A stretch of 64,000 nucleotides of DNA from an uncultured Actinomycetes bacterium (GCA_963755815.1 CAVWLF010000001.1:1-64000), one strand, 5' to 3'. Shown: positions 34,752-53,443, counted from the stretch's first letter. Notes: a model not told the origin generated them from the sequence alone. A program made the numbers and translations.

Positions 34752-34789
34752 CATACGGCAGAACGGGGCACTACTGGCCAGTGAGCCGC

Positions 34790-36279
34790 CGCCAGTTGGG
34801 CACCGACGGGTGCTGGCGGCAGGCCGGCCCGGTGCCGAACGCACGCAGGATGTTGCCGGTGATCCGCCGCACGATCGCTGACGCACAGGTCCCGGCCGCA
34901 GTCTTCCCGCCTGGCCTGTTCCCGGTCCTGTCCCTGGTCGTGTTCCCGGTCCTGTTCCCGGTGTTGCTCCCCGGCCGGTCTCTGGCATCGCATCCGCTCC
35001 GGCCGGCGAGCGCGGGAATCCAGTTGGTGGTCCCGGTGTCCAGCACGCCCGCGCCGCCGGCCGCATCGGTGTAGTACGTCATATCCGAGTAGAACGGCCC
35101 GATGTCCGTCTGGCCCAGGCCCGCCGGGATCGGCGAGTGCGACAAGACCTGAAGGCCCGCCGGATGGATCATCGCCGGGTAAAAGCGATCGACGTCCGAG
35201 CCGATGACCCCCGGCACCGTCGACCCGTCATGCAGGCCGGTGCCGCGGTACACCCAGGATGATGCGTCGGACACCACCAGGCTGGCCCGCAGGCCGGGCT
35301 CCAGGAAGCCGGCGTACATCTCGCCGACGAAGTCACTTTCCGGCCAGTTGGTGGGCGGCGACCCCCAGGTGTTAGCGGTGACCTTCAGCCGGCTGCCCTT
35401 CCCGTCGAGCGGGTCCTCCGCGGCATCCCGGTAGTCGACCTCCTCGCGGCCGGGCCCGAGTGGCGAGGGCTGCAGCCGGACATGCCGCAGGATCGGCTGG
35501 CCCCGAAGAAGACGATGTTCATGCCTGCGTCGTGGGCGGCCACGACGGCGGTCCGCTCGGACAGTGACCAGCATTCGTCGTGGCCGAGGGTGAGCAGGAC
35601 GCGATGACGCAGCAGGTAGCGCGGATGCTGGGCGACCGCCTGATCCGTCACGTAGGTCACGTCCAGGCCATGCTGCTCGGCGAACCGGACCAGCGGATAT
35701 TCCAGGGTCAGGAAGTTCCCTGACCCTTCCTCGGCGGCATAGGGGCGGCGTCCAGTTGGCGCAGGACACCATATTTATCCCGGCCGTCACCGGGCAGCGC
35801 TGCTGCACCTTTCCGGCTATTTCCGCCGACTGCCATACCAGCCGGGCACCTTTGCCCTGGTAGTAACCCATCCGGAATGCCTCAGCGCGGAATTCGGCGG
35901 CGGCGGTGGTGACGTAGAGCCTGACCTGCTGGCCGCGGTGAGCATAGGTGCGGCTCGCGAATCCGGCGATACTGCCTTTCGGGTGCCGTATCTTCCATGC
36001 GGTCGTACCCGGCCGGTTATTCTCGGTGATAACCCACTGGGCTTTCCTGCCGTCCGGCCCCGGCCACGTCGCCGCCGCCGTCCTGGCGCCGGGCGGACCG
36101 CCGCGGCCGGCCCGCGATCCGGTGCCGCGCCCGGTGGCCGGGCCCGGGCCTCCGCCCGGAGGCGCAGCCTGCGGGCGGCCATTGGCCGGCGCCGCCACAT
36201 CGCGCAGGCTGTGCCGGATAAGGACCACGCCGGCCGTGACGACGACCGCTAACAGCAGGATCCCGGCCACGCCCGCCAT
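34790..36279 (-). pseudogene. N,N-dimethylformamidase-beta-subunit-like secreted protein gene disrupted by several frameshifts
   Basis: Recognisable segments in three frames (WVITENNRPGTTAWKI...; LGHDECWSLSERTAVV...; GTGLHDGSTVPGVIGSDVDRFY...GTTNWIPAL). N-terminal membrane anchor MAGVAGILLLAVVV. May instead reflect sequencing errors. Confidence 0.4.
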
Positions 36280-36684
36280 GCCCGCCCGGATACCGGGGCG
36301 CCCGGGTTTGCCGCGGTCCCGCCAGATCCCGGAGTTAATGACTGATCCTCCTGCCTGCCGCTGCCCGGGGGGAGCGAGGATGCCGCCCCGTGCATCAGCG
36401 CGACGGAAGAGGGCAGCTAGGGAATGAGCCCGGCCGTACGCGAGCAGCACGCACATGATCTTCGCTGCATTAATTCTAACGGCAGGCAAATCAAACAACA
36501 AAGAACTCCGGCGGCTTATTCAGCTCGGCTCGCAGCCGGGCGAAAGCCATTAGCCGGTATTTGCCTGAATATAACTAATGACGGCGCTGTGCGGGACTAC
36601 GGCTATTGCCCGATACATGTACCAGTTAGCCGCGGACCAGGTAAGCTCGCGGAAAATCCTCCTGGCCGGACTGGACGGCGGCAG

Positions 36685-37953
36685 ATGCATCGGTGGACGT
36701 GGCTGGCCGGGACGGAGCGGCCGCAGGCGCACCGCCGGACCTGGCTGGCCCGGACGGGACAGCCGCAGGCGCACCGCCGGGCCTGGCTGGCCGGGACGGT
36801 AACCGCCGCCGCCGTGCTGTGCGTTACGTCGGTTGCCGCCTGCGCGGCTCCGCCGCCACGGCTGCTGCTCGGCGGGATCACCGCGGAGCGCTCGGCGCCG
36901 GACGGTATCAGGGCGTTGCCGCCGGACCCGTCATCCCCGGCCAGCTCCGCATCCCGGGACGGTTCCGCATCCCAGGGCGGCTCCGCGTCCGCGGCTGGTT
37001 CCGCATCCGCGGCCGGCCCCGCATCACCGGCCCGCACCGCGTCGCCGGCCGGACTCGCGCTCCCGTCCCTGGCCGGACCGCCGCATAGCGCGGCGCAGCG
37101 CTGGCTGGCGGCCGGCTCGGTGCCGGGCCGCACCCCGGCGCAGCGGCAGCTGGCCGAGGGCGCGCTCATCGACCTGCGGCTGCTTACCCGCCCGGACGGC
37201 GCGGTCGCCGCCGCCTGGTTCGGTCCGTGGAAGTTCGCCTGGCCGCGTGACTCCAGCTGGGTGGCCGCCGCGTTCGCCGCCACCGGCCATTCCGGCGACG
37301 CACTGCGCATCCTGCGCTTCCTCGCCCGGGTGCAGGGCCCGGCCGGCACCTGGGCCGCCAAGTACACGCTGGCGGGCGGGCCGGCCCCGGCCGGGCCAGG
37401 GGCCGAGCTCGATGCCAACGGCTGGTTTCCCTGGGCGGTCTGGATCTGGTACGCCGAGCAAGGCGGCCGGGCCGGGGCGCGGCGGGAACTGGCCGCCCTG
37501 TGGCCCGCCGTCCGCCGCGCGGCGGACGCCACCGCGGCGTCGCTGTCGGCCGGCGGGCTGCCACCGCCATCGCCGGACTACTGGGAACAGCCGGTCAGCC
37601 AGCCGACGATCGGTACCGCCGGCCCGCTGCTGGCCGGGCTGCGCGCCGCCGCCCGGCTGGCGGCCGGCCTCGGCGACGTCAGTGACGAGCGCCGCTGGGC
37701 ATCCTCCGCGGCGCGGCTTGACCGGGGAATCCAGGCTGCGTTTGGCCCGGAATTCAATCGGTTCCCGAACTCGGCCGGGGGCACTGGCACCTGGCTGGCC
37801 CTCTTCGGTACCGGCCCCGGCCCGGCCCATGACGGCCTTTCGGCCGACTCGGTGCTGAACGGGCCCGATGCCGCGGTGACCTTTCTCGGCCCGCCATTCG
37901 GCCGGCCAGCGCGGCGGTCAGCGCGGCGGTCGCGCGCGCGGCCCGGGTCCTGA
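36685..37953 (+). CDS. glycoside hydrolase family 15 (glucoamylase/trehalase-like) lipoprotein; reading frame shifts near 37900 and continues to about 38240
   Basis: GH15 signature FGPWKFAWPRDSSWVAAAF. N-terminal basic region with 33-bp tandem repeats, then a VAAC lipobox. The conserved C-terminal segment (LPEQVNASGQPVSVAPLGWTCA) lies in another frame up to the stop at 38240. Confidence 0.7.
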   Translation: MHRWTWLAGTERPQAHRRTWLARTGQPQAHRRAWLAGTVTAAAVLCVTSVAACAAPPPRLLLGGITAERSAPDGIRALPPDPSSPASSASRDGSASQGGSASAAGSASAAGPASPARTASPAGLALPSLAGPPHSAAQRWLAAGSVPGRTPAQRQLAEGALIDLRLLTRPDGAVAAAWFGPWKFAWPRDSSWVAAAFAATGHSGDALRILRFLARVQGPAGTWAAKYTLAGGPAPAGPGAELDANGWFPWAVWIWYAEQGGRAGARRELAALWPAVRRAADATAASLSAGGLPPPSPDYWEQPVSQPTIGTAGPLLAGLRAAARLAAGLGDVSDERRWASSAARLDRGIQAAFGPEFNRFPNSAGGTGTWLALFGTGPGPAHDGLSADSVLNGPDAAVTFLGPPFGRPARRSARRSRARPGS

Positions 37954-38252: not shown

Positions 38253-38945
38253 TCAGCTGGCCTGCGGCCGGATGTCCTGCTTGATGGACAGCTTGCCGTC
38301 CCTCATCACCCCGACCCGCTGCGCCCGGCGCGCGATCGAGCTGTCATGAGTGATCAGGACCATGGTCAGCCCGAGTTCGCGCCAGAACTTCTCCAGCAGG
38401 GCGATGATCTCGTCTCTGGTGTCCTCGTCGAGGTTGCCGGTCGGCTCGTCGGCCAGCAGCACCTTGGGCTTCTTCACCAGCGCCCGGGCGATGGCAACGC
38501 GCTGCTGCTGGCCGCCGGACAGTTCCGAGGGCAGGTGCCGCAGCCGGTCGCCGAGCCCGAGATCGGTCAGCGCCTCGGCCGCCCGGGCCCGCCGCTGCGC
38601 GGCGGGCAGCCCGGCCGGCACCAGGGCCGCCTCCACGTTCTCCTGCGCGCTGAGCGTGGGTATCAGGTTGAACGTCTGGAAGACGAACCCGATCGACCTG
38701 GCTCGCACCGTCGTGACCTGGCTCTCACGGATGCTGGCTAGGTCCTGGCCGTCGAAGTCGACGAGGCCGGCCGTCGGCCGGTCCAGCCCGCCGAGTATCT
38801 GCAGCAGCGTGCTCTTACCGTGGCCGGTCGGGCCCTGGATGGAGAGCCACTCGCCGTCCTCGATGACCAGGTCGATCCCGCGCAGCGCGGCCACCGTGCC
38901 GCGGTCCTTCCGGTAGTCCTTGGTCACGCCAGTGAGCTTGTACAT
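38253..38945 (-). CDS. ABC transporter ATP-binding protein (MacB/LolD-like)
   Basis: Walker [10 protein letters not shown], signature [15 protein letters not shown], Walker [25 protein letters not shown]. The longer upstream ORF extension is low-complexity. Confidence 0.85.
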
Positions 38946-39000
38946 CTGCTTCCCCTCGTCGAGGTCCGCGGAATCCGCCGCCGGGTCCGGCCGCTGCCCG

Positions 39001-40521
39001 TCACGCGACCCTGGCCAGCGCGTCCGCCGGGCGCAGCCGTGCTGCCCGCCAGCCGCCGAACGTCCCGGCGATGAGGCCGCCGGCCATGGCCAGGACCACG
39101 GCCAGCACGATGACATCGAGCGTTACCTGAGCGGTCAGGTGCACCGGCACGGTGTGGCTGGCATTCGCGGCGGCCCGCCGGAAGCCGCCGCCGAAGCCAC
39201 CGCCACCACCACCGAAACCGCCGCCGAAGCCGCCGCCACCGCCACCGCCGAACGTGCGCGCGCCGCCCGGCGTCGCGCTGCCGGTCGTCGGGCCGATCGA
39301 TGCCGACAGCGGCCCGGACAGCCGGGTTACCAGCGTGGCGCCGAGGAAGCCGAGCGCGACGCCGGCGATGCCGCCCGCCAGGCCGATCACGAGTGACTCG
39401 CCCATCACCTGGCTGACCACCCGCCGGCTCCGCCAGCCGAGCGCCTTCAGCGTGCCGAACTCCCTGACCCGGCGGGCAACCGCCGCCATCGTCAGCAGGC
39501 TGGCCAGCAGGAACGCGGCGGCGAGCACGGCGATGGAGAGCCAGCGGCCGAGGTTGCTGGCCAGGCTGGACGCGCTGGACAGCGAGCCGGTCACCTCGCT
39601 GGCCAGGTCGCTGGAGTTGGTCACGGTGGCCTTGGGCATGAGCCCGGAGATTTCCTGCGATACGGCGGTGATGTCCGACGCGCTGCTGGCGGCCACGTAG
39701 ACCGTGTTCACCTTGTTCTTCAGGCCGGCCAGGGCCTGCGCCCGGGCCAGCGGAATGTAGGTGTCCGCGGCACTGGCGCCGGCCGGCACGCCGACCACCC
39801 CGATCACCTTGAAGCTCTTCTTGGCGATCGTGATCGAGGAGCCGACCTTGAGCTTGGCCTGCTTGGCGTAGTCGGAATCCACCACGGCGACGTTCGAAGT
39901 CGCGTCGGCGGCGGTGAACGTCCGCCCGGCCGTGACCTTGCCCGAGCTGAGCGGGCCAAGCTCGCCCTGGGACAGGTCAACGCCGGAGACACTGAACGAG
40001 CTCGGGGTAAAAGCGCCGCGGAACCTTCCGCCTCCGCCACTTCCGCCTCCGCCACCACCGCCGCCGCCGAATCCGCCGCCGCCCCCGCCGCCGGCGTTGA
40101 TCGACGGGATCTTTCCGGTGATCTTGGTGTCGGTGAGGGTCAGCCCGCCCGCGGCGGCCGCGACGTCGTGCAGCCTGGAGACGGTCGTCACCGACGCCGA
40201 ACTCAGTGTCCCGAGCCCGAAGTTCCCCAGGGTGTCGATGTCAATCTTGGTGCCGGGCGCGGGCCGGGTCCGCGAGCCGGTTGTCCCCCGGAACCCGAAC
40301 GAGCGGGGCCCGCCGGCGCTGGCCGCCGGGGCCTGCGTGACGGTCACGTCCGTGCCCACCCCGTACAGCGAGTGCAGCACGGTGCCCTGCGCGGTCCGCA
40401 CCCCGGCCGACAGCGCCGCGACCGTGATGACCAGCCCGATCCCGACGGCCAGGCCGGACGCGATGAGAATGGCCTGGCGCATCCGGCGGCGTAGCTCGCG
40501 CCGCAGGTAGGTGAAGAACAA
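39001..40521 (-). CDS. ABC transporter permease, FtsX/MacB family, with poly-Gly/Phe inserts
   Basis: N-terminal TM, large extracytoplasmic domain, then three C-terminal TM helices (FtsX fold). Two glycine runs: GGGGGGGFGGGGGGGGGSGGGG and GGGGGGFGGGFGGGGGGFGGGF. Confidence 0.8.
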   Translation of the reverse strand: MFFTYLRRELRRRMRQAILIASGLAVGIGLVITVAALSAGVRTAQGTVLHSLYGVGTDVTVTQAPAASAGGPRSFGFRGTTGSRTRPAPGTKIDIDTLGNFGLGTLSSASVTTVSRLHDVAAAAGGLTLTDTKITGKIPSINAGGGGGGGFGGGGGGGGGSGGGGRFRGAFTPSSFSVSGVDLSQGELGPLSSGKVTAGRTFTAADATSNVAVVDSDYAKQAKLKVGSSITIAKKSFKVIGVVGVPAGASAADTYIPLARAQALAGLKNKVNTVYVAASSASDITAVSQEISGLMPKATVTNSSDLASEVTGSLSSASSLASNLGRWLSIAVLAAAFLLASLLTMAAVARRVREFGTLKALGWRSRRVVSQVMGESLVIGLAGGIAGVALGFLGATLVTRLSGPLSASIGPTTGSATPGGARTFGGGGGGGFGGGFGGGGGGFGGGFRRAAANASHTVPVHLTAQVTLDVIVLAVVLAMAGGLIAGTFGGWRAARLRPADALARVA

Positions 40522-40618: not shown

Positions 40619-42544
40619 TCAGGAACCTGAGGAGATCCTGGCCAGCGATTCTGAACGGACCCTGTAAGGAGTCTGCAAAATTACCGGGTTCCGGCGAGGG
40701 ACGCCGGGCCGGTATACCTTCACGCCGTCCGCGGTGTAGCCGAGCCGGAAGCCGGTCTCGTGCAGATAGCGGATGGCCGGCCGGGTCCGGCCATGCCATC
40801 TCCAGACCAGCACCCAGCCGATGTCCAGGTGGCGCGCGTCCAGCCGGGCCGCCGCCAGCTGCGCCGGGGTGACCTGCTGGCCGTGCTGGACGGCCACCAG
40901 CTCGGCGAAGAAGGCATGCTTCCTGGCCGCGGCCAGGGTGGGACCGGGTATCCGGGACAGGAAGCCCACCGCGCGCGGGTGCCCGTCGGCGGTCGCCAGT
41001 ACCTGCGCCTCCGGGTCGAACCGGCCTCCGTAGACCGGGGCTCCGCCGCGGAGGCCGTACGGGACGTCGACGACGAGTGACCCGGAATGGTCGGCGGCGA
41101 TCGGCCGGTCGACGGCGGGCAGCGAGGTCGGCATGGAACCGATGCGGGGATTGCCGGACCAGCCGGCTTCCAGCATTCCGAGCGCCAGCACGACGACGAT
41201 GGCGGGGGCTGCGTGGTAGCGCAGCCAGTTCACCGCCGCGCCGGCCAGCAGGGCGGCGGGCACCATGCCCAGCATCAGGATCCGGGCCGGCTCCCGGAAG
41301 CCGGACAGCCCGGGGATGCGGACGAACCAGGTGTACGGCATCACCGCGGACACCCGCACCCCGTCCAGGGTGGTGGCGTCGGGAACGTAGACGTGCGGGC
41401 CGATCCGCAGCACCGGACCTAGGGCCAGCGCGGCGCAGCCGAGGCACAGCAGCGCCAGCAGCCATGCGCTGCGCCGCCGCCAGGCGGCCAGCAGCCCGAG
41501 CAGGGCGAGCAGGCTCAGCACCAGGCCGTAGGTGGGAACCCCGTCGATGAGCCGGCCAGAATAGATGAGCCCGGCGGGGACGTGCAGCCTGAGCTCGGTC
41601 ACCCGCGGGGAAAGCTCGAACATGCCGGGGAGCGGGACCGAGTAGGCCAGGTAGGAGGTGCCCAGGTCACCCGCCGGGGTGGTGGCGCCGCCGGATCTGG
41701 TCTGCTGGGCGATGGCGATGAGCTGCGGGCTGGCGACCAGCAAGGTCACCAGCCCGGCCAGCGCGGCCGGCCACAGCTTCGCCACCACCGGACGCCGCAC
41801 CAGCCACGGCACCAGCGCCGCGCACGCCAAGATGACCACCAGCACGGCCATCTCCTGATCAGTCAGCAGCGCCCCGCCGGCCACCACCCCCAGGACCACC
41901 GCCCGCCGCCACCCCGGCCGCCGCGTCAGCCGCACCGCGGCCTCCAGCGCCAGCGGCAAGAACAACGCCCCCGCGGCCAGGTTCAGGTGATACCAGGACC
42001 GCCACGTCAGCATCGACGACAACCCGAAAAACGCCCCCGCCGCGATCGCGCCCACCTGCGAGGGCAGCCACAACCGCGCCACCCGGTACATCGCATAACA
42101 CAGCAACCCCGGCATCACCACCGACAGCAGGTTGTACGACGCACTCGGCCCGAACACCACCGTCACCGGCATCATCACCACGCCCGGCAGCGGCATCAGC
42201 GCATGCAACCCCAGCTGAGCCCCCGCCGGAGCATCGATATAACGGGTAAACCACGGATTACCCAGATGCTCCACCTGCCGCGCAACCCACCAGAACCCCC
42301 ACACGTAACTACCCGCATCACGCGTCGCCGGCAACCGGCCCGCCAGATACGTCACCCGCGGCCAGCTCACCGCCATCCCCGCCGCCACAAACCCAGCCAG
42401 CACCCCCAGCTGAACCGCCACCGGACCACGAACCACCCGGAAAACCCGCCACCACCCGAACCCGCCCGGCCCGGGACCACCCGCCGCAACGCCCGGCAGC
42501 CTCCGGCCCGGCTCCGGCCCCGACCGGAGCCCTGACCGCCGCAT
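40619..42544 (-). CDS. large polytopic membrane protein, putative GT-C-fold polyprenyl-phosphate-sugar-dependent glycosyltransferase (copy 1, intact)
   Basis: 641 aa. About 11-13 hydrophobic helices in the first 450 aa, followed by a soluble C-terminal domain. Clustered with a Dpm1-like GT2. Family assignment not computed. Confidence 0.6.
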   Translation of the reverse strand: MRRSGLRSGPEPGRRLPGVAAGGPGPGGFGWWRVFRVVRGPVAVQLGVLAGFVAAGMAVSWPRVTYLAGRLPATRDAGSYVWGFWWVARQVEHLGNPWFTRYIDAPAGAQLGLHALMPLPGVVMMPVTVVFGPSASYNLLSVVMPGLLCYAMYRVARLWLPSQVGAIAAGAFFGLSSMLTWRSWYHLNLAAGALFLPLALEAAVRLTRRPGWRRAVVLGVVAGGALLTDQEMAVLVVILACAALVPWLVRRPVVAKLWPAALAGLVTLLVASPQLIAIAQQTRSGGATTPAGDLGTSYLAYSVPLPGMFELSPRVTELRLHVPAGLIYSGRLIDGVPTYGLVLSLLALLGLLAAWRRRSAWLLALLCLGCAALALGPVLRIGPHVYVPDATTLDGVRVSAVMPYTWFVRIPGLSGFREPARILMLGMVPAALLAGAAVNWLRYHAAPAIVVVLALGMLEAGWSGNPRIGSMPTSLPAVDRPIAADHSGSLVVDVPYGLRGGAPVYGGRFDPEAQVLATADGHPRAVGFLSRIPGPTLAAARKHAFFAELVAVQHGQQVTPAQLAAARLDARHLDIGWVLVWRWHGRTRPAIRYLHETGFRLGYTADGVKVYRPGVPRRNPVILQTPYRVRSESLARISSGS

Positions 42545-42634
42545 CCACGCCGGCCGCCACGGTCGAGCCGGCCCGGTCAGCGGCCGTCTCCGGTCCCGCC
42601 TCGCGGGAATCGATCACGCTCTGATCGGCCGCTT

Positions 42635-44736
42635 TCATCGCCGGGCAGCGCCGCCCGCGCGGTATACCCGCACGCCGCCCGCGCGGTATACCTTCACGCC
42701 GCCCGCACGGTGTACCTTCACGCCGTCCGGCCGGTATACCTTCACGCCGTCCGCGATGTAGCCGAGCCGGAAGCCGGTCTCGTGCAGATAGCGGATGGCC
42801 GGCCGGGTCCGGCCGTGCCATCTCCAGACCAGCACCCAGCCGATGTCCAGGTGGCGCGCGTCCAGCCGGGCGGCCGCCAGCTGCGCCGGGGTGATCTGCT
42901 GGCCGTGCTGGACGGCCACCAGCTCGGCGAAGAAGGCGTGCTTCCTGGCCGCGGCTACGGTCGGGGCCGGTACCCGGGACAGGAAGCCCACCGCGCGCGG
43001 ATGCCCGTCGGCAGTCGCCAGCACCTGCGCCTCCGGATCGAACTGGTCACCGTAGGCGCCAGTTCCGCCCCGGAGGCCGTACGGGATATCAACCACGAGT
43101 GACCCGGAATGGTCCGCGGCGATCGGCCGGTCGATGGCCGGCGGCTGGTGGCGATGGACCCAATGCCAGGATTGCCGGACCAGCCGGCTTCCAGCATTCC
43201 GAGCGCCAGTACGACGACGATGGCGGGGGCTGCGTGGTAGCGCAGCCAGTTCACCGCCGCGCCGGCCAGCAGGGCGGCGGGCACCATGCCCAGCATCAGG
43301 ATCCGGGCCGGCTCCCGGAAGCCGGACAGCCCGGGGATGCGGACGAACCAGGTGTACGGCATCACCGCGGACACCCGCACGCCGTCCAGGGTGGTGGCGT
43401 CCGGGACGAAGATATGGTTGCCGACCCGGATTACGGGGCCAAGGGCCATGACCGCGCAGCCGAGCCAGAGCAGTGCCAGCAGCCACGCGCTGCGCCGCCG
43501 CCAGGCGGCCAGCAGGCCAGCCACCGCCAGGACGCTCAGCACCAGGCCGTAGGTGGGGATCCCGTCGCCGATCCGGCCGCCGTAGATGAACCCCGGCGGG
43601 CCGTGCAGCCCGAACGCGGTCACTCGCGGGGAGAGCTCGAACATCCGGGGGAAGATGACGTCGTTCCCGAGATACGACCCGCCGAGGACGAGCTTCGGGA
43701 TAGTGGCGCCGCCGGATCTGGTCTGCTGGGCGATGGCGATGAGCTGCGGGCTGGCGACCAGCAAGGTCACCAGCCCGGCCAGCGCGGCCGGCCACAGCTT
43801 CGCCACCACCGGACGCCGCACCAGCCACGGCACCAGCGCCGCGCACGCCAAGATGACCACCAGCACGGCCATCTCCTGATCAGTCAGCAGCGCCCCGCCG
43901 GCCACCACCCCCAGGACCACCGCCCGCCGCCACCCCGGCCGCCGCGTCAGCCGCACCGCGGCCTCCAGCGCCAGCGGCAAGAACAACGCCCCCGCGGCCA
44001 GGTTCAGGTGATACCAGGACCGCCACGTCAGCATCGACGACAACCCGAAAAACGCCCCCGCCGCGATCGCGCCCACCTGCGAGGGCAGCCACAACCGCGC
44101 CACCCGGTACATCGCATAACACAGCAACCCCGGCATCACCACCGACAGCAGGTTGTACGACGCACTCGGCCCGAACACCACCGTCACCGGCATCATCACC
44201 ACGCCCGGCAGCGGCATCAGCGCATGCAACCCCAGCTGAGCCCCCGCCGGAGCATCGATATAACGGGTAAACCACGGATTACCCAGATGCTCCACCTGCC
44301 GCGCAACCCACCAGAACCCCCACACGTAACTACCCGCATCACGCGTCGCCGGCAACCGGCCCGCCAGATACGTCACCCGCGGCCAGCTCACCGCCATCCC
44401 CGCCGCCACAAACCCAGCCAGCACCCCCAGCTGAACCGCCACCGGACCACGAACCACCCGGAAAACCCGCCACCACCCGAACCCGCCCGGCCCGCCACCC
44501 CGCGGCCCGGCATCCGGCCCCCCGACCGGAGCCCTGACCGCCGCACCCACGCCGGGCGGCCGCACCTCAGCCGGCCGCACACCGGCCGGCGTTACCGGCG
44601 AGCTAGCCGCCGGACCCGGCCCGCTCAGTGCGGCCGGCCCGGGACCACCCGCCGCCACGGCCGAGCCGGCCCGGTCAATGGTCTGTGCCGGGCCGGAGGC
44701 CAGCGGCCCCTGCCGGTCACTGTCCGCCCGGTCCAT
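42635..44736 (-). pseudogene. tandem paralog (copy 2) of the GT-C-like membrane protein, interrupted by a 1-bp frameshift near 43150, with a C-terminal DGVKVYR repeat expansion
   Basis: N-terminal part ORF 42955-44736 and C-terminal part ORF 42635-43846 are in different frames. Each part aligns with copy 1. 790 bp (43704-44492) is identical to 41683-42470. Confidence 0.5.
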
Positions 44737-44769
44737 CCGTTCCCTCGCTTAGCTCGTCGCGTGCGCGGC

Positions 44770-45801
44770 TTACAGTCGTCCTTCGCTAACGGCCTGCTCA
44801 ATCCACGGAATGACCTCGTCGAGCATCTCGTCGAGCGTGGTGGTGGCCCGGTAGCCGAGCACCCGCCGGGCCTTCTCGACGTCAGGAACCCGCCGTTGCA
44901 CGTCGTGCTCGTACGGCTGCTCAGCCACGAAGCGGAACGGCACATCCGGGCCCTTGACCTTGCGCCAGATGAGCCCGGCCAGGTCGAGCACGGTCGTCGA
45001 CTCCGCGGTCGACAGGTTGAAGTCCTCATTGACCGTGCCCGGGTGCAGCAGCGTGGCGACGATCCCGCGGGCCAGGTCACCGCCGTAGGTGTAGTGCCGG
45101 ATCTGGTCGCCCTGACCGAGGATGCGCAGCGGATCCTGGCCCTTGAGCACCTTCTGCACGAGATCGGGAACGACATGCGACATGGCCAGCCGGACGTTTC
45201 CGGACAGCACCTCGGCCTGGCCAAGCGCCCGTCCCTCGCCGATGCCAACGCAGTTGAACGGGCGCACGATCGTGTACGGCAGCTGGTACTGGTCCCACGC
45301 GGCGCGGGCGAAGTACTCCACGGCGAGCTTCTGGAAGCCGTACGAGGAGCGCGGCGGCGGGATCCGCCGCTCGTCCCCCTCCCGGGACGGCCAGTTGTCC
45401 GTGCTCTCGTACACCATGGAGGAGCTGACATAAGTCATCTTTTGCAGCGTGCCGGATTTATGCGCCCGCAGCGCCGCGTCGCAACTCGACGCGATGATCC
45501 GCTCGTTAGTGGCGAGCAGATCGTAGGCATAGGCGTGAAAGTAGCTAATTCCTCCGATCATCGCGGCTCCGGCGATGAAGTGATCGCACCCTTCCAGTAG
45601 CTCGGCCAGCAAGCCGGCCTCAGCGGCGTCGCCTTCAACAAAATGGTGGTTCGGGTGGTCATCGAAACTATGCTTCACCGGCCCGTACTTGGAGAAGTTG
45701 TCGACCCCGACCACGGTGTGGCCCTGATCGAGCAACTCCTGAACCACGTAGCCGCCGATGAAGCCAGCCGAGCCGGTGACAAGAACCTTCGCCACGAACA
45801 C
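44770..45801 (-). CDS. NAD-dependent epimerase/dehydratase family protein (SDR, nucleotide-sugar modifying)
   Basis: Rossmann motif VLVTGSAGFIGG. Catalytic YxxxK (SSYGFQKLAVE). Extended SDR length. Confidence 0.85.
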   Translation of the reverse strand: MFVAKVLVTGSAGFIGGYVVQELLDQGHTVVGVDNFSKYGPVKHSFDDHPNHHFVEGDAAEAGLLAELLEGCDHFIAGAAMIGGISYFHAYAYDLLATNERIIASSCDAALRAHKSGTLQKMTYVSSSMVYESTDNWPSREGDERRIPPPRSSYGFQKLAVEYFARAAWDQYQLPYTIVRPFNCVGIGEGRALGQAEVLSGNVRLAMSHVVPDLVQKVLKGQDPLRILGQGDQIRHYTYGGDLARGIVATLLHPGTVNEDFNLSTAESTTVLDLAGLIWRKVKGPDVPFRFVAEQPYEHDVQRRVPDVEKARRVLGYRATTTLDEMLDEVIPWIEQAVSEGRL

Positions 45802-45852: not shown

Positions 45853-46605
45853 TCAGCGCGGTGCCGCGGCATCGCTTTCCCGGCGCGCGGTCAGTTTCTC
45901 CAGGGTCAGCCGCGGGCCGAAGGCGAAGCGATACCAGTGCAGGTAGCCAGGCAGCCATTGCACCAAGTCGAAGCGGGACTCCCCGAACGAGCGATCCAGC
46001 CAGATGGTCGGGATCTCGGCGACCGGGCGTCCCAGCCTGGTGGCCTTCGCGGTGAGCTCGAGGCCGATCTCGAATCCGGCTCGCGAGTCAATTCCTACCT
46101 GCCGCACGAACTCGGTCGAGTAGGCCTTGAAGCTATTGGTGGCGTCCCTCGTGCCGACCCGGGCGAGCAGCCGCAGTGACTTGCCCGCCGATCTGGACAG
46201 CAGGCGCTTGAGCTTCGGGCCGCCAACCTGCTGGCCGCCCGGCATATACCGGGATGCGGCGGCGACCGCAACCCCCCGTTCCACTAGCCGGGCCAGGTCG
46301 TCGATCTGCCGCGGGTCGTCGCTGCCATCCGCCATCGTCACCACGGTGACCGGCGACCGCGCCTCGTCGAAGCCGGCCCGGATGGCGTTCGCGGGACCGG
46401 GACCGTAGCCATTGAGCACGCCGCGCACGCGCGCGTCCGCGCTGGCCACCTTCTCGATGTAGGGGACCGTGGTGTCGTCTGGCCGGTCGTAGACGACGAG
46501 TACCTCACACGGCGACGTCACCGCGGCCAGCACCCGGTCCAGGCACGGGCGAATGGCCTCGCCCTCGTTGTAGACCGGAATCACCACAGTGATCTCGGGA
46601 CTCAT
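45853..46605 (-). CDS. GT2 family polyprenyl-phosphate sugar synthase (Dpm1/GtrB/Ppm1-like)
   Basis: VVIPVYNE start motif. DxD (TMADGSDD). QxxRW-like region. Size and motifs match dolichyl/polyprenyl-phosphate hexose synthases. GGAAGAGG RBS. Overlaps the upstream dehydrogenase gene. Confidence 0.85.
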   Translation of the reverse strand: MSPEITVVIPVYNEGEAIRPCLDRVLAAVTSPCEVLVVYDRPDDTTVPYIEKVASADARVRGVLNGYGPGPANAIRAGFDEARSPVTVVTMADGSDDPRQIDDLARLVERGVAVAAASRYMPGGQQVGGPKLKRLLSRSAGKSLRLLARVGTRDATNSFKAYSTEFVRQVGIDSRAGFEIGLELTAKATRLGRPVAEIPTIWLDRSFGESRFDLVQWLPGYLHWYRFAFGPRLTLEKLTARRESDAAAPR

Positions 46606-47816
46606 ACCCGCATGCCTCTTCCGGTCACGCCCCACAGGTCCGCGACCGGCTTGTCGGTGACCAGGTCGCGATATTCCGGATGAGGTGCGGCAACGATCAG
46701 CAGGTCGGCGCGCTCAAGCACCTCGGCCAGCGATGTGAACCGCTTATCGGTGATGTAGGGGTCCGAGCACAGGACCTCGTTCGCCTTGAGAATCAGAATT
46801 TTACGGAGCTTATAGGACAAACTCTCCCGCGAGTCATCGCTGCCGGCCTTGAAGCCCATTCCCAGGACCCCGACGGTGAGTGCGGCGAGATCGTAGCGGG
46901 TCTCCAGCCGGGAGACGAGGTAGAGCGGGAGACCCTCATTGATCAGCATTGCCGAGTGGCCGAGCACGAATTTGTTCTGGTTGAATGCCGCGAGCTGCAT
47001 CGTGTCCTTGAGCAGGCACGGGCCGGCCGCGAAGCCCGGCCCCGGCATATCGGCGGCCCGCGGATAGTCGTGCCGGATGGCCCAGCGTATCCGCTCAAAA
47101 TCTAGCCCGTAGTCATTCGCCATCATCCAGAACTGATTGGCCGTCGCGAATTTGATGTACCGCCAGGTGTTGGTGAAAAGCTTAGCGAGCTCGGCTTCCT
47201 CGGGTTGCAGCCGGACGACCTCATTAGTCAGGATGCGGAAGAACTTTTCCGCCCGGTCGCCAGCACGGTCAGTGCGGGCACCGACGATTTGCGGCAGGTC
47301 GAACAGCTCCTCCATGGCATGTCCCTCGGCGATGCGCTCGGGGCAGAAAGCTATATCCACGTCGATGCCGCGTTTGCTGAGCATGCGCTCGGTCAATGCG
47401 GTGACCGTCGGGTGAATGGTGCTGCGCAGAATGACGAGCTGGCCGTCGACCAGATATTCGGCGCACCGGTCCAGGGCGGCCGGCACCGCGCCCAGGTCCG
47501 GGTTGAGATGCTCGTCAACCGGGGTCCCGACGACGACAACGAGGATCTCGGCGGTACCGACCACCGCCGGGTCGGTCGTGGCCGTGAGCCTGCCTGCGCA
47601 CACGGCCGCGCGCAGCGGCTCCTCGGCACCTTCCTCGGTGAACGGCATGCGCGCATTGCTGACAATTTCTACCGCAGCCGCGTTGAGGTCATATAGGCGC
47701 ACCGATAGGCCGCGCGAAGCCAAGGCCACGCCAAAGGGGAGGCCGACGCGCCCGCAGCCGCCAATGATCGCCACATCGGCCGAGAAGGATGGGGGGGCCT
47801 GCTTGTCCGTTGGCAT
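46602..47816 (-). CDS. UDP-glucose/GDP-mannose dehydrogenase family protein (nucleotide-sugar 6-dehydrogenase)
   Basis: N-terminal NAD motif VAIIGGCGRVGLPFG. Catalytic Cys region GPGFAAGPCLLKD. Three-domain layout. GAGGAA RBS before ATG 47816. Confidence 0.85.
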   Translation of the reverse strand: MPTDKQAPPSFSADVAIIGGCGRVGLPFGVALASRGLSVRLYDLNAAAVEIVSNARMPFTEEGAEEPLRAAVCAGRLTATTDPAVVGTAEILVVVVGTPVDEHLNPDLGAVPAALDRCAEYLVDGQLVILRSTIHPTVTALTERMLSKRGIDVDIAFCPERIAEGHAMEELFDLPQIVGARTDRAGDRAEKFFRILTNEVVRLQPEEAELAKLFTNTWRYIKFATANQFWMMANDYGLDFERIRWAIRHDYPRAADMPGPGFAAGPCLLKDTMQLAAFNQNKFVLGHSAMLINEGLPLYLVSRLETRYDLAALTVGVLGMGFKAGSDDSRESLSYKLRKILILKANEVLCSDPYITDKRFTSLAEVLERADLLIVAAPHPEYRDLVTDKPVADLWGVTGRGMRV

Positions 47817-48038
47817 GCTGTTCCTCGTCCGTTGGCATGCTGTTACTCGTTCGGGCGCAGACATAACGTCATCCGGCGGCTAGTTAAACTGCTGCGGAAA
47901 ACTACCGCAGCAGTCCCGCACCGCCTCGATGGTCCGCAGGCACCGGATTTCCCCGATTCCTTCCGAAGCCGAAGTGTACCTACCGGCGGCGTAACGTAAA
48001 AATCCATTACTTTACCGAGATCTGCACTTGGGGCGCAC

Positions 48039-48052
48039 TTGACGTACGTCAA
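48039..48052. promoter_or_regulatory. perfect 14-bp palindrome TTGACGTACGTCAA in the AT-rich region upstream of the nucleotide-sugar/GT operon
   Basis: Self-complementary over all 14 positions. Lies 220 bp upstream of the dehydrogenase start in a locally AT-rich spacer. Confidence 0.35.
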
Positions 48053-48067
48053 TATTCCAGTGGTGAT

Positions 48068-48709
48068 CTATTTACCCAGGCCGGGAGGCGGCGGGCAATG
48101 CTTTGCCAATAGCACCGGCGCCGAATCCGCCGGCCGGCCCGGAAGCGGCCCGCCGACCCGGTAGCGGCGGCCGTCGAGCGCCGAGCACCCCGACCAGCAG
48201 GTAGCTCGCCGTGGTGGCGAGCGCCGTGACGATGGCAAACGATCGTGCGTCCTGGCCGTACCAGCTGATCTCCGGCAGCGCGGCGAAGAAACCAGCCCGG
48301 CGAAGAGCCCGGCCCGCGGCGACACCAGCCGCCGCCCGATCGCCGCCACCCCGGCCGCCGCCGCGGCCATCGCCAGCGCCGACGGCAGCCGGGTGGTGAA
48401 CTCGCTGCTGCCGCCAAGCCGCACCACGACCCAGATGATCATGTAGTAGGCGCCGTGCACGGCGTCAGTGTGGCCCAGTATCCGGATCAGGGCGCCGAAC
48501 GGGCGGCGCACCGCCGCCAGGGTGGCGCCCTCATCCCGCCAGTACGACGGGGTAGTGATCCGCCAGAGCATCAGCGTGAGCGTGGCCGCCGGCGGGACGG
48601 CCCGCATCCAGAGCGGGCCGCCGGCGGCCTGATCCGGCGGCCGCCGGGCCGCTCCGGCCGTCTCCCCGGCTGGCCTGTCCAGGACGGCAGGCCGGCCAGC
48701 TGACGACAT
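48068..48709 (-). pseudogene. N-terminal fragment of a GT-C (PMT/ArnT-like) glycosyltransferase, truncated
   Basis: First ~130 aa (WRITTPSYWRDEGATLAAV...HGAYYMIIWVV) resemble the first TM helix plus DE-containing loop of GT39/83 enzymes. The remainder is low-complexity and there is no catalytic core. Confidence 0.35.
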
Positions 48710-48796
48710 GATGCGGTTCCTCCCGGCACGTCAGGCTACGACGAACGGGCCAGAACTAGCTACTGCCCGCAATCGGGAGAATACAAGAAGTGACGG

Positions 48797-49801
48797 TCAG
48801 GCTCCGCGCATGGCCCGGATTGATTCCCGCAGTGACCCCATCGTGGCGAGCACGGCGGACGGCTCGTACCCGCAATGGGCCATGCAGTTGGAGCACCGCT
48901 CGTCCTTGCCGCGGCCGTAGGCGTCCCAGTCGGTGGTCTCGATGAGCTCCTTGTACGTCTTCACGTAGCCGTCGGCCATCAGGTAGCACGGCTTCTGCCA
49001 GCCCAGCAGGGAGTACGACGGGATGCCCCAGGCGGTGCAGCCGAAGTCGGTCTTGCCCTCCAGGAAGTCCAGGAACATCGGCGAGTGATTCAGCCGCCAG
49101 CGCTTCCGGTTGCCGTTGTCGAACGCCTTGCGGAACAGCTCCCTGGTCTCGGTCACGCCGAGGAAGTGCTCCTGGTCCGGTGCCTTCTCGTAGGCGTAGG
49201 CCGGCGAGATCATCATGTCGCTGACCTTGAGGTCGTCGTTGAGGTAGTCGAGCACGTCGATGACGGTCTGCGGGGTGTCGGTGTTGAAGACCGTCGTGTT
49301 CGTGGTGACCCGGAAGCCGCGGCGCTGGGCTTCCCTGATCGCCGCGACCGCCTCGTCGAAGACACCGTCCTTGCAGACCGATGCGTCGTGCCGCTCGGCC
49401 AGGCCGTCAATGTGCACGGTCCAGGCGAAGTACCGGGACGGCGTGAACTTGTCGATGTGCTTGGGCAGCAGCAGCGCGTTAGTGCACAGGTAGACGTACT
49501 TCTTGCGCTTGACCAGTTCTTCCACCAGCACGTGGATCTGCGGGTGCATCAGCGGCTCACCGCCGGCCAGGGAGACCATCGGCGCGCCGCATTCCTCGAT
49601 CGCCGCCAGCGCCTGCTCCACCGGCATCCGCTGCTTCAGCAGGCTGGCCGGCTGCTGGATCTTGCCGCAGCCGGCGCACTTCAGGTTGCACGCGAACAGC
49701 GGCTCCAGCTCAACGATCAGCGGGAACTTCTCCCGCCGGGCGAGCTTCTGGCGGGCTAGGTACGCCCCGACCCGGATGCTCTGGCGCATGGGGATACTCA
49801 T
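48797..49801 (-). CDS. hpnH: hopanoid biosynthesis associated radical SAM protein HpnH (adenosylhopane synthase)
   Basis: Radical SAM CxxxCxxC ([10 protein letters not shown]). Length and conserved C-terminal Cys motif ([11 protein letters not shown]) typical of HpnH. Adjacent to shc. Confidence 0.9.
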
Positions 49802-51303
49802 GTTTGCCTTACCTCCTTGGGCAGGCCGAACCGGATGTTCTCAGTAGCGACGACGCGCTCGCTCACCTCGACCGGGCCGAGGCCGCCGAGCGCGGCGATA
49901 ATCTCGTCGACGACGGACGGCGGCGCCGAGGCGCCGGCCGTGAGCCCGATCGTCGACACTCCAGCCAGCCAGCCGAGCTCGATGTCCTCAGGGCCATCGA
50001 TCAGGTAAGCGGGCCTGCCAGCCCGCTCCGCCGTCTCCACCAGGCGGCGCGAGTTGGAAGAGTTGGCCGACCCGGCCACGAGCACCAGGTCGGATTCGGC
50101 GGCCACGGCACGGACCGAGAGCTGCCGGTTGGTGGTGGCGTAGCAGATGTCGTCGCTGCCGGGCCCGCGGGCGGCCGGGAACCGTTCGAGCAACTCCCCG
50201 ACGAGCCCGCCGGCCTCGTCGGCCGACAGCGTGGTCTGCATCAGGTAAGCCACCTTGCCGGGATCCTCGGGGCGCAGGCCGGCCACGTCGGCCTCGTTTT
50301 CGACCAGGACAGTTGAACCGGGCGCCTCGCCCAGCGTGCCCTCGACTTCCTCGTGGCCGGCGTGCCCGATGAGCGCGACCAGATAGCCGTCGGCGGCGAA
50401 CCGGCGGGCCTCCACATGCACCTTGGACACCAGCGGGCAGGTGGCATCGACGGTTTCCAGCCCGCGCCGGGCCGCCTCGTCCCGCACCGCCGGCGACACG
50501 CCGTGCGCGGAGAACACCGTCACGGCACCGTCCGGAACCTCGCTCAGCTCGTCCACGAAGATCGCGCCGCGGCGCTCCAGGCCCGCCACCACATGGGTGT
50601 TGTGCACGATCTGCTTACGCACGTAGACCGGCGGACCGTGCTGATCAAGCGCCCGCTCGACGATCTCGATCGCCCGCTCGACCCCGGCGCAGAAGGACCG
50701 CGGCCCGGCCAGCACCACCCGCCGCCGCCCGGCCGCGGCCGCCCAGCTGGCGAGCGCGGGCGCGGCCAGCCGCAGGGAGCGCAGCGCCGCGACCCCGCCG
50801 GCCAGGCCCGCCGGGCTCAGCAGCGGCCGCTGCGGCGTATCCGATACGGCCCGGAGCACGATCGCGGGCCGGTCGGCGGCCGCCGCGAGCAGCTGCGCCG
50901 ATTCCATATCGGCCACCAGCGCGCCGGTGCGCGCGAGCCGCTCCCGCTCGGCGCCGTGCACCAGGTGATCGACGGTGACGATCTGGCCGGCCCGGGCGTT
51001 CAGCCCGGCCCGCCGCAGCTCGCCCGCCAGCAGCGGGGCCGACGGGCAGCTGATGGCTGCCGCCCCGGAGCCACTGACCTGCGTGCCAACGACGAGGTCG
51101 CCGGGCGACAGGTCGCCGGAGAGGCCGCCGCCGGTTCCGGCGATGGCCAGCATCCCAAACGAGCCCGGGCGGAGCTTCGCCGCCGCCGAGGCCGATTTCA
51201 CCGGCCCGTAGCCGGTCTGCCTGACCTCGGCGCCGGAGCCGATGCCGCGCCGCACGGCGCGCGCTTCCAGCCGGAGCGGCGAGCAGACGAGCAGCCGGTT
51301 CAT
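49798..51303 (-). CDS. ispH: fusion protein: HpnG-like hopanoid-associated phosphorylase/nucleosidase domain + IspH (4-hydroxy-3-methylbut-2-enyl diphosphate reductase)
   Basis: N-terminal PNP/MTAN-family fold ([14 protein letters not shown]..., ADMESA). C-terminal LytB with the three cluster Cys ([24 protein letters not shown]). Start at MNRLL has GGAGGAA RBS. Confidence 0.8.
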
Positions 51304-51385
51304 CGCATTCCTCCGCTCGGCCCGGCGGGCGCGCCGGGGGCCCGCCCGCCCGCGATTAGCCCGCCCGCGGTCAGCGACGGCCGGC

Positions 51386-53443
51386 TCATCCCGCACCGGC
51401 CAGGTAGCGGCCCAGCGCGCTGACCGGGAAGACCAGGCGGTACAGGTGGTAATTGATGTAGAAGTCACCCGGGAACCCGGTGCCGGTGTACTGCGGCTCG
51501 TCCCAGGTACCGTCCGGGCGCTGATGACTGGCCAGCCAGCGGACGCCGCGCTCTACGCAGGCCGCGTCATCCGCGCTGTCCCCGTCCCCGCTGGCCCCGT
51601 CCCCGTTGTTCCCGGCGCGGCCGGCCGCGCCGTGGCTGCTGCCGGTCTCGCCGTGGCCGGGTCCGGCGGCCGTGGAGCCCTGGCTCGCGGCCAGCAGCGC
51701 GAGCAGCGCCCATGCCGTCTGCGACGCCGTCGACTCGCCGCGCCCGGCCAGGCCCGGGTCGTCATAGGACCGCAGGTCCTCGCCCCAGCCGCCGTCCGGA
51801 TTCTGGTGCTCCCGGAGCCAGGCCACGGCCCGCCTGATCGGCGGCTTGCCGGGCAGCACGCCCGCGGCGATCAGCGCGGGCACCACCGCGCCGGTACCGT
51901 ACACGTAGTTCGCTCCCCACCGGCCGAACCAGGACCCGTCGTCCTCCTGCGCCCGCAGCAGCCAGGCCACGCCGCGGCGCACCGCCTTGCTGCCCGCCAG
52001 GCCCGCCGCGGCAAGCGCCTCGATGGTGTGCGCCGTGACATCCGCGGACGGCGGGTCGATCACCTCGCCGAAGTCGCAGAACGGCAGCTTGGCCACGATC
52101 TTCCTGGTGTTGTCCGCGTCGAAGGCGCCCCAGCCCCCGTCCCGGGACTGCATGCCGGTCAGCCAGCGGAGGCCGCGCGCCGTGGCCGCGGCCGACCGCG
52201 GCTCGGCGGCCGGGTCGACCCGCCGGAGCGCGAGCACCACCTCGGCGGTGTCGTCGATGTCCGGGTAGCCGTCGTTGTCGAACTCGAAGGCCCAGCCACC
52301 CGGGCTGAGCCCGGGCCGGCGGGCCTGCCAGTCACCCGGCCCGCGGATCTCCTCGCCGGCCACCCAGCGGGCCGCTGACGCCAGCGCCGGATGGTCGGCC
52401 GGAAGGCCGGCGTCGGAAAGCGCGATCATCGCCAGCACGGTGTCCCAGACCGGCGACTGGCATGCCTCCAGCCGCCTGGTCGGGCCGTCCGGCCCGTCGG
52501 CCCAGATGGTGAACCGGTCCAGCCCGGCCAGGCCGCGCTTGATCACCGGATGCTCCAGGCCGTAGCCCAGCAGGTGCAGCGCGATCAGCGAGTACACCCA
52601 GGGCGGCTGAATCCCGCCCCAGCAGCCATCGGCCTCCTGCCGGGCGATGATCCACTCCGCGCAGCGCCGCAGGGCCGCGGTCCGGACCGCGCGCATCGGG
52701 CGGGTTTGCTCGCCATGCCGGTGGTAGGCGTGCAGCACGCGGTCAAGCCCGCCGAAGAAGGCCGGCCAGCCCGGCCGCGGCAGGCCCCCGGCGCGGGCCG
52801 CGGCCGGCCCGGGGCCCGGATCAGGCGCGGCCGGCCACAGCTCGGGCAGCGCAAAGGGCAGCGAGCGGACGGGGCGCAGCGATCCGACAATGGTCAGCGG
52901 GACGATCGTCTGCCTGGCCCAGCAGGCCCAGTCCTGCACGTTCAGCGGGAACCAGCCGGGCAGGTAGATCATCTCCGGCGGCATCACCGGGAGCTCGTCC
53001 CAGGACCACTCGCCGAAGAGGGCCAGCCAGATCCTGGTGAACACGCGGGTGGCGGGAATGCCCCCGGCCGCGCGGATCCAGCCCGCCGCCCGCGCCATGT
53101 GCGCGGCGTCCGGCGAGTCGCCGGCCAGCCGCAGCGCGACGTAGGCCTCGACGGTGGTGGAGAGGTCAGCGTCGCCCTGGTAGTAGTTCGCCCAGGTCCC
53201 GTCCGCTCGCTGCCGGGACCTGATCCACCGCGCCGCGGCCGCCGTCTCCGGCTCCGCCCGGATGCCGAGGAACTCGCGGAGGAGCAGGTCCTCCGCATCC
53301 ATGGTGACGTTGGTCTCCAGCTCGCCCTGCCACCAGCCGCCGGGGTGCTGCAGGTCAAGCAGATGACGGGCGGCCAGGTCCAGCGCCGTCCGCGCGACCT
53401 CGGGCGCCGCCTGCCCGCCGGGGCGTGCCTGCGTCACCGTCAT
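51386..53443 (-). CDS. shc: squalene-hopene cyclase
   Basis: Multiple QW motifs (QxxDGxW/GGW). DxDD-type catalytic region (DIDDTAEV). C-terminal [16 protein letters not shown]. Confidence 0.9.

Follow-up and report, generated by a model that had tools for sequence, protein, structure and literature searches.

Positions 40619-44750 of the 64,000-nt stretch of DNA analyzed here (hereafter the window; G+C content 71%), which comes from an uncultured Actinomycetes bacterium (GCA_963755815.1 CAVWLF010000001.1:1-64000), hold two head-to-tail paralogous units of about 2 kb, both on the minus strand and both coding for GT-C-like membrane glycosyltransferases. The pair is probably an old tandem duplication that has undergone recurrent gene conversion, with an artefactual frameshift in the upstream gene and a fixed repeat at its 3' end. 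The features on which this explanation is based are as follows.

40619-42544, minus strand: copy 1, the downstream paralog, an intact 641-aa open reading frame (ORF) counted from the first ATG (ORF list, translation)
42635-44736, minus strand: copy 2, the upstream paralog, 2102 nt with one frame switch, one base short of a 700-aa ORF
41682-42473: conversion tract, copy 1 side, codons 24-288, including the invariant R75-D76
43703-44494: conversion tract, copy 2 side, 100% identical to 41682-42473, putative recipient of the last conversion
41190-41359 and 43211-43380: second exact tract, 170 bp (alignment of units, identity profile, segment trees)

According to the self-comparison of the window, the two conversion-tract segments form an exact repeat of 792 bp at an offset of 2021. 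The initial annotation had placed the identical segments at 41683-42470 and 43704-44492, and its observations on the sequence are all real and accurate to a few bases. Outside the tract the units align at 89% (97 mismatches and 4 gap columns over 934), and at 11.5% divergence the chance probability of an exact run of 792 bp is ~1e-42 by an arithmetic estimate. Along the units, the identity profile starts with about 98% at the 3' gene ends, shows 84-92% deeper inside, drops to 72-82% at 41404-41707, and then reaches 100% over the tract, being mosaic elsewhere (72-100% per 100 bp). As assembled, copy 2 is composed of a 593-aa ORF (42955-44736) and a C-terminal part in a different frame (42635-43141).

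Concerted evolution of the two copies

The public collection contains at least seven assemblies of the same species (ENA ERZ250394xx, ERZ25039518, ERZ25039553, and one JGI contig). The frame-break site and the repeat of copy 2 were compared in seven assemblies, namely the window, L001, L081, L084, L088, L091, and L092. The 792-bp tract is not an accident of one assembly, because it is also present base for base in L001 and L081. The numbers of mismatches between the upstream and downstream copies over the tract, with two contigs added, L002 and L003, which are the nearest metagenomic relatives, are given below.

Window: 0
L001: 0
L081: 0
L091: 2
L084: 8
L088: 9
L002: 1
L003: 92

The two copies of L091 lie 16 and 18 sites from the window tract and only 2 from each other, and therefore the copies evolve together within strains. 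Paired strain single-nucleotide polymorphisms (SNPs) at homologous positions are found at 41880/43901 in L084 and at 40779/42801 in L001. As for the direction of the last event, the tract of L084 differs from that of the window at 1 position in copy 1 and at 9 positions in copy 2; since the downstream tract thus stays close to the window and the upstream one has diverged, the last conversion would have copied the downstream gene into the upstream gene. Homogenization by gene conversion, which the initial annotation had offered as one of two alternatives, is borne out by the sharp-edged identity tract beside sequence of 72-82% identity, by discordant trees (with moderate support outside the tract), and by strain substitutions that occur in both copies.

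The 792-bp identity would be the trace left when the downstream copy recently overwrote the upstream one by non-reciprocal homologous recombination, the direct repeats being spaced by 2,021 bp. The process is probably repeated and patchy, as suggested by the 170-bp exact tract, by the C-terminal tract of 98% identity, and by long exact tracts that arose independently between paralogs of other genomes (1191 bp in L002, 1547 bp in L016, and 370 bp in L017). In the structural model described below, the tract extends from before the first transmembrane helix (TM1) to the end of helix 254-283. It thus roughly matches the N-terminal membrane helices, the structurally conserved module of GT-C enzymes, contrasted with a variable module (PMC10154233). 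Conversion would keep this N-terminal module (TM1 to about TM7, with Arg75-Asp76) nearly identical in the two proteins, and the loop and membrane region after the tract (codons ~289-385), which is the lowest-identity segment at 72-82%, would escape conversion and retain its ancestral upstream or downstream identity.

Tandem arrays of 2-3 GT-C copies are frequent in other metagenome-assembled genomes (MAGs) of Streptosporangiaceae. L016 has three tandem copies, and the 1547-bp exact run belongs to those at 8128-9951 and 10346-12064. In L017 the copies at 6001-7752 and 11305-13041 flank dehydrogenase-GT2-epimerase genes, still with the 370-bp exact run. In L092 (JGI Ga0643817_0020108, 5361 bp) the gene adjoining FtsX (253-2289) combines the start and tail of copy 1 with a copy-2-type body. 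Near-whole-gene conversion of copy 1 by copy 2 was considered for this contig and not adopted: the switch points lie in identical or near-identical tracts, and a chimera of the assembly path is equally likely.

The frame break of the upstream gene

The initial annotation described copy 2 as frameshifted by a 1-nt deletion near 43150 inside a cluster of substitutions. The deletion itself is confirmed as a 1-nt gap versus copy 1 at ~43141, within such a cluster, at the following site.

43135-43146, minus strand: frame-break site, coding strand AGCC-GCCGGCCATC; intact alleles AGCCGGCCGGCCATC (Ser-Arg-Pro-Ala-Ile)

The site lies inside the family-wide conserved motif MPTALPAVDRPIAADHS, whose spacing is preserved by the full-length allele. 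The alleles found at this site are listed below with their length change.

L081 and L092: AGCCGGCCGGCCATC, 0
Window: AGCC-GCCGGCCATC, -1
L084: AGC--GCCGGCCATC, -2
L001 and L088: AGC---CAGGCCATC, -3
L091: AGC---CTGGCCATC, -3

As a biological feature, however, the frameshift does not stand, since copy 2 is in frame at the site in 5 of the 7 assemblies, the very outcome that the initial annotation had named as speaking against it; the two exceptions are the window (-1) and L084 (-2), and the -3 alleles (L001, L088, and L091) carry CAG or CTG variants. L001, which is 99.1% identical to the window over 21.8 kb, has copy 2 in frame with 699 codons. Copy 2 of L081 has 700 codons and exactly one extra base versus the window at the site, and L092 also has the full-length form. 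The 593-aa product of the window is encoded by no assembly in the collection, and exact look-ups of a 585-aa product of copy 1 and of one further ORF likewise gave no record. The ratio of non-synonymous to synonymous change (dN/dS) of copy 2 versus its L003 ortholog is 0.14-0.30, without excess non-synonymous change, and judging from these sequences copy 2 would have been functional over time.

The 1-nt frameshift is most likely a long-read consensus error in the GGCCGGCCGG context. It is taken as an artefact because changes of 1, 2, and 3 nt occur at one 10-nt GC-rich site in a population at most 3% divergent, unlike unit slippage or ordinary mutation. With a consensus error in copy 2, the real gene is therefore probably the intact 700-codon ORF. 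Frame-changing indel disagreements among the same-species assemblies amount to 65 distinct sites over ~46 kb. Related MFD MAGs were assembled from nanopore reads only, with Flye and one Medaka round (PMC12313526). Regarding sequence context, all 3 frame-breaking differences between the window and L001 fall within 3 nt of GCCGGC, a zone that makes up 4.8% of positions and in which SNPs show no enrichment (4 of 65).

Several points weigh against the consensus-error reading. The nanopore or long-read origin of the window assembly, and likewise of the ENA and JGI contigs, is itself suggested by Flye-style contig names and the error pattern. With a looser definition and all assemblies pooled, indels near GCCGGC are only weakly enriched (10 of 65 sites); GCCGGC, a possible methylation motif, is for this reason kept as a hint and not as a conclusion on the cause of indel errors. 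Finally, the -3 allele, which three assemblies have in common, could be a genuine in-frame allele, in which case the site would be truly variable.

The frameshift may alternatively be real, so that copy 2 would be a very recent pseudogene, or code for a truncated 593-aa enzyme without the C-terminal extracytoplasmic domain, as part of an ongoing decay of the cassette. This alternative is unlikely. The break is present in the sequence as given, L084 is out of frame as well, and a third GT-C gene of the PMT_2 type, intact in L002 and L003, is truly cut to a 177-codon remnant in the window, and therefore gene loss does occur in the cluster. Yet the disruption is not reproduced in independent data from the same lineage, with most assemblies in frame and the 593-aa product found in none of them; four lengths at a single 10-nt site are improbable as real mutations at such low divergence, indel disagreements of this kind are scattered over the region, and copy 2 shows no excess of non-synonymous change.

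Age of the duplication

L002 and L003 contain the same tandem pair with the same gene order, as opposed to one copy in L004 and L059. Neighbour-joining trees were built by segment for codons 30-288, 289-385, 386-470, and 546-612. In the first, third, and fourth of these segments the two window copies are sisters at 100% bootstrap. In codons 289-385, in contrast, the upstream copy of the window groups with the upstream copy of L003 (74% bootstrap) and then with the single-copy L059, and the downstream copy groups with the downstream copy of L003 and the L002 pair. Protein identities disagree along the gene in the same way. An old duplication overwritten in patches is the preferred explanation, because the discordant segment trees show the pattern expected of it, and the duplication probably preceded the split of the window species from the lineages of L002 and L003. 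The initial annotation had called the duplication recent and proposed a comparison with relatives to date it. That comparison points to an old pair: it is common to L002 and L003, upstream copies group across genomes in the unconverted segment, and strain substitutions are common to both copies.

Against this dating stand the moderate bootstrap of the upstream and downstream clades in the unconverted segment (54-83%, 285 sites) and the synonymous divergence (dS) between the window copies in the middle region, which at 0.30 is below dS to any ortholog (0.36-0.41). From the segment of codons 289-385 alone, an independent and not-so-recent duplication in the lineage of the window, followed by divergence, is possible. 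An independent recent duplication, suggested by the low dS between the copies, was rejected as the main explanation on the grounds of mosaic identity, shared synteny, and strain data.

That a lone 2-kb gene was duplicated in tandem only recently, with the 792-bp tract as the undiverged remnant and with flanks that diverged fast, e.g. under relaxed or positive selection, is very improbable and already largely refuted. Such an event would fit the window copies being mutually closest over most of the gene, a dS between them of 0.21-0.30 outside the tract, below dS to orthologs, and the single copy at the locus in the nearest species-level genomes, L004 and L059. One event, however, cannot yield 0% divergence over 792 bp beside 18-28% over the adjoining 300 bp. 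Nor does it agree with the tandem arrangement of L002 and L003, with codons 289-385 of the upstream copy grouping with the upstream copy of L003 and with L059 and not with their neighbour, or with L084, L088, and L091, which have both copies with varying tract identity and substitutions in both.

The terminal repeat of copy 2

42649-42755, minus strand: 24-bp tandem repeat (Tandem Repeats Finder: period 24, 4.5 copies, 87% matches)

The initial annotation had counted 4-5 copies of a 24-bp repeat adding DGVKVYR units to the C-terminus of copy 2, which agrees with the 4.5 copies found. The repeat encodes DGVKVYRP DGVKVHRA GGVKVYRA GGVRVYRA at the very end of copy 2, where it adjoins the junction with copy 1, and repeats in frame the conserved strand DGVKVYRP of the C-terminus. 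None of the 17 aligned homologues has this array, and four units are present in 7 of the 7 same-species assemblies. The repeat is thus a fixed lineage-specific extension at the gene junction and not a variable tract; it would have arisen as an old in-frame quadruplication of the last beta-strand and would not act as a switch.

The active turnover or phase-variation-like behaviour suggested by the initial annotation finds no support in the repeat, which is in frame and constant in number, or in the frame-break site, which varies by 1, 2, or 3 nt and not by a repeat unit. In its full form, this explanation takes the locus as a phase-variable contingency locus in which slippage at the GGCCGGCCGG site, the 24-bp repeat, or both toggle the upstream glycosyltransferase and so vary the envelope; a bolder variant treats the GGCCGGCCGG site as a real hypermutable on/off switch of the upstream enzyme. 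Envelope-modifying enzymes are phase-variable in some pathogens, the predicted product is such an enzyme, and length heterogeneity occurs across assemblies at exactly one short repetitive site. Phase variation is highly improbable here nonetheless: the length changes are not multiples of the 4-nt unit, the site has fewer than 3 units, well under the tracts known to slip at useful rates, and similar indel disagreements occur in unrelated neighbouring genes.

Also highly improbable is an assembly or polishing artefact as the source of the 792-bp identity (consensus cross-talk of similar repeats, or a collapsed and re-expanded repeat). In its favour, the assemblies are error-prone, and the downstream gene of L092, with its copy-2-type body, looks like a path switch within identical tracts. 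Against it, the window, L001, and L081, which come from different samples, agree in the tract and in its boundaries, and other strains retain 2-9 differences in it, which means that the pipelines do not erase differences. Moreover, every assembly has unique flanks and a unique junction in collinear order, and analogous tracts exist in unrelated assemblies.

Start of the downstream gene and other length differences

42488-42537, minus strand: length-variable GC-rich leader of copy 1 (length comparison and reading frames across assemblies)

The leader of copy 1 is a second frame anomaly, absent from the initial annotation. Counted net, it is 6 nt longer in L001 than in the window, and 10 and 12 nt shorter in L081 and L084, respectively; the window length is unlike that of every other assembly. 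The ATG from which the downstream gene starts in L081, L092, L002, and L003 overlaps the stop of the upstream gene (ATGA; in the window 42635-42638, with the ATG at 42636-42638). The product of copy 1 counted from this ATG has 669 aa in L081 and 678 aa in L092. In the window, owing to the leader, the conserved ATGA-coupled start (MKAADQSVIDSRE...) and the enzyme core are in different frames.

Length differences are also seen in other genes of the window. A 1-nt deletion at 37899-37900 versus L001, L084, and L085 truncates a conserved 518-aa hypothetical protein (plus-strand ORF 36424-37953); the longer frame is supported by homologues in L003, L004, and L059, and L081 has the state of the window. 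In the minus-strand gene with a DMFA2_C domain (~34771-35871), differences of 1 nt at 35054 and 12 nt at 35278-35289 are found versus L001, L081, and L085. The resulting ORF in L001 overlaps the convergent SpoIIE gene by 195 nt, and the frame of the window aligns to L004 in one piece. On homology, L001 appears broken at 35054 and the window correct, yet L081 and L085 have the base count of L001 there. L078 (ERZ25039460 contig_27225, matching window positions 9791-31076) splits genes that are whole in L077 and L079, namely the GH127 gene into 620 and 84 aa and a THUMP-like gene into 135 and 94 aa, and has a truncated methyltransferase; these splits illustrate how indel-prone some assemblies are. 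A scan of the whole window for frame switches in third-position G+C content (GC3) detected ordinary gene boundaries only, missed the known break of copy 2, and was abandoned.

Fold and family of the encoded proteins

The initial annotation proposed to assign the proteins by hidden Markov models (HMMs) to GT39/PMT, GT83/ArnT-PMT_2, GT87, YfhO, or DUF2079, and no family matches above threshold. Both copies score below every Pfam and NCBIfam threshold, with a sub-threshold DUF7887 as the sole match at E<=1. The YfhO, PMT, ArnT, and DUF2079 HMMs give no match at E<=1 for the window proteins, and neither a PDB sequence search nor a family-profile search matched any PDB chain. Among 57 sampled homologues, PMT_2 is weakly matched in 11 (best E=1.7e-6). 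A large protein database contains 2,779 relatives at E<=1e-3, nearly all of them unnamed and a few labelled ArnT-like by JGI; they come mostly from uncultured Streptosporangiaceae-like soil actinomycetes. HMM classification thus proved unusable for the window proteins, and fold comparison alone gave a class.

The AlphaFold2 model of copy 1, built with 57 homologues, has a mean predicted local distance difference test score (pLDDT) of 72 and a predicted template modelling score (pTM) of 0.77. In the Foldseek search against PDB, the best 21 matches are all GT-C enzymes (STT3 with E=1e-5, AftA, AglB, DPY19, AftD, and ArnT), and in both fold searches GT-C enzymes alone stand at the top of the lists. 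The predicted structure has a multi-spanning N-terminal membrane domain with GT-C architecture. The description of the genes as GT-C-like is thereby upheld by the fold, and not by HMMs. GT-C enzymes carry a catalytic acid in the first extracytoplasmic loop, just after TM1. Arg75-Asp76, invariant in 57 of the 57 homologues, is placed by the model 8 residues past helix 41-67, i.e. just after TM1, at the position of this acid, and may therefore have a catalytic role. The family is an uncharacterised GT-C glycosyltransferase family outside the named HMM families listed in the initial annotation, and its C-terminal domain of ~170 aa and conserved motif MPTALPAVDRPIAADHS are without a named counterpart.

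Sugar cassette and flanking genes

38253-40521, minus strand: MacB/FtsX-type ABC transporter downstream of copy 1 (permease 39001-40521, ATPase 38253-38945)
44770-45795, minus strand: SDR (short-chain dehydrogenase/reductase) nucleotide-sugar epimerase/dehydratase, directly upstream of copy 2 (Pfam Epimerase)
45853-46605, minus strand: GT2 glycosyltransferase resembling polyprenyl-phosphate sugar synthases (DPMS, ArnC, dolichyl-P-hexose transferase)
46602-47816, minus strand: nucleotide-sugar 6-dehydrogenase (TIGR03026, 252 bits versus a cut-off of 190; Pfam UDPG_MGDP_dh)

In the near-identical ENA contig L001 and in relatives, the gene order is hopanoid genes, a PMT_2-type GT-C gene (in some genomes), nucleotide-sugar dehydrogenase, GT2, SDR epimerase, one or more GT-C paralogs, and the MacB/FtsX ABC transporter. 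The dehydrogenase-GT2-epimerase-GT-C block recurs in ~17 species-level genomes. The best PDB relatives of the SDR protein include UDP-glucuronate 4-epimerase and UDP-glucuronate decarboxylase, with all NCBIfam matches below cut-offs. The GT2 protein matches the dolichol-P-mannose synthase 5mlz with E=7.7e-15, and all its NCBIfam equivalog matches are far below cut-offs. This adjacent DPMS/ArnC-like enzyme suggests, by analogy, a polyprenyl-phosphate-linked sugar as the donor. Both GT-C enzymes would then share the lipid-linked donor supplied by the GT2 enzyme, and their diverged second half may give them different acceptors or linkages. Against such a pathway stands the result that no GtrA, SMR, or MATE flippase domain is found among the called genes within 10 kb in L001, L080, and L081, the only transporter there being the MacB/FtsX ABC system.

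Directly upstream of the sugar cassette, a hopanoid-type cluster occupies 48797-55776 and beyond (minus strand), with an HpnH-like radical SAM/DUF3463 gene, a 501-aa PNP_UDP_1+LytB fusion, squalene-hopene cyclase (51386-53443), polyprenyl synthase, and squalene/phytoene synthase with amine oxidase. This adjacency is kept in L002, L003, L004, and L059. The remnant of the third, PMT_2-type GT-C gene is located at 48177-48709 (minus strand) inside the gap 47817-48796; residues 1-177 of 516 are left, with 76-87% identity to L002. Beyond L002 and L003, a PMT_2 gene also borders locus L088, whereas in L004 it is broken into fragments and from L059 it has almost vanished. The window and L001 disagree most over 48059-48611, with 44 mismatches and 50 indel columns. 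The FtsX/MacB permease gene contains Gly-rich low-complexity repeats at 39146-39283 and 40007-40099 (GCC/GCCGCCGAAGCC-type arrays with periods 3, 12, 15, and 33), and L081 has a 15-nt in-frame length difference at 40041-40057 of this gene.

Discussion

Multi-component transmembrane glycosylation systems include GtrA/GtrB/Gtr* O-antigen glucosylation, Ugd-ArnA/C/T lipid A modification, and Gram-positive systems of the CsbB/GtcA/YfhO type (PMC11127046; PMC8035078). As in these systems, a GT2 enzyme similar to polyprenyl-phosphate sugar synthases adjoins an enzyme of GT-C fold, with nucleotide-sugar-modifying enzymes (dehydrogenase and SDR) before them. The expected logic would be the same, with a monosaccharide donor that is carried on a lipid and consumed on the outward-facing side of the membrane. 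Unlike these systems, the cassette has no recognised GtrA/SMR/MATE flippase gene, contains two (ancestrally three) GT-C genes instead of one, with a GT-C protein that matches no curated family HMM, and adjoins hopanoid genes and a MacB-type ABC transporter. In contrast to ArnT and PMT_2 (GT83/GT39-like), the window proteins fall under all Pfam/NCBIfam thresholds, and neither the C-terminal domain nor MPTALPAVDRPIAADHS has a named equivalent.

The mycobacterial EmbC, EmbA, and EmbB proteins are adjacent GT-C paralogs with a lipid-linked donor in common, and EmbA and EmbB form a heterodimer with different acceptor roles. The window pair resembles the Emb genes as adjacent paralogous GT-C genes in an actinobacterium, and the EmbA-EmbB structure 7bvf is among the fold matches of the model. 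Emb proteins, however, have ~1,050-1,100 aa and large carbohydrate-binding domains and are long diverged, and we know of no gene-conversion tract in Emb genes. A heterodimer of the window pair by analogy with EmbA-EmbB would be pure speculation. A more far-reaching proposal is that conversion is selectively confined to the donor-binding/catalytic module and the acceptor-facing codons ~289-385 are protected, so that the pair, as separate enzymes or as a heterodimer, would combine a single shared lipid-linked donor with two specificities for acceptors; this proposal is doubtful.

Concerted evolution of bacterial duplicates by gene conversion is familiar from tufA/tufB and rRNA operons. As there, paralogs within a genome are closer than orthologs between strains, tract edges are sharp, and strain substitutions occur in both copies. 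Unlike there, conversion is regional: in this tandem pair it acts mostly on the N-terminal catalytic module and spares an internal segment, which retains its paralog identity. The locus is an unnamed member of a known enzyme class showing a well-known evolutionary process; as an ordinary case, it does not overturn current understanding.

The main practical lesson concerns assembly errors. The in-frame allele at the copy 2 site is AGCCGGCCGGCC, and frameshifts of nanopore-style MAGs at GC-rich GGCCGG-type sites need a check against sibling assemblies before a pseudogene or phase variation is called. As for the biology, the pair defines a GT-C family that is widespread and unnamed, that belongs to a conserved sugar-activation cassette, and that is a candidate for envelope glycan modification. 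It also provides a clean natural case of region-restricted concerted evolution in a membrane enzyme, in which donor, recipient, and relative timing can be read from strain-level assemblies. If true, module-wise concerted evolution might hold generally for tandem GT-C arrays in actinobacteria.

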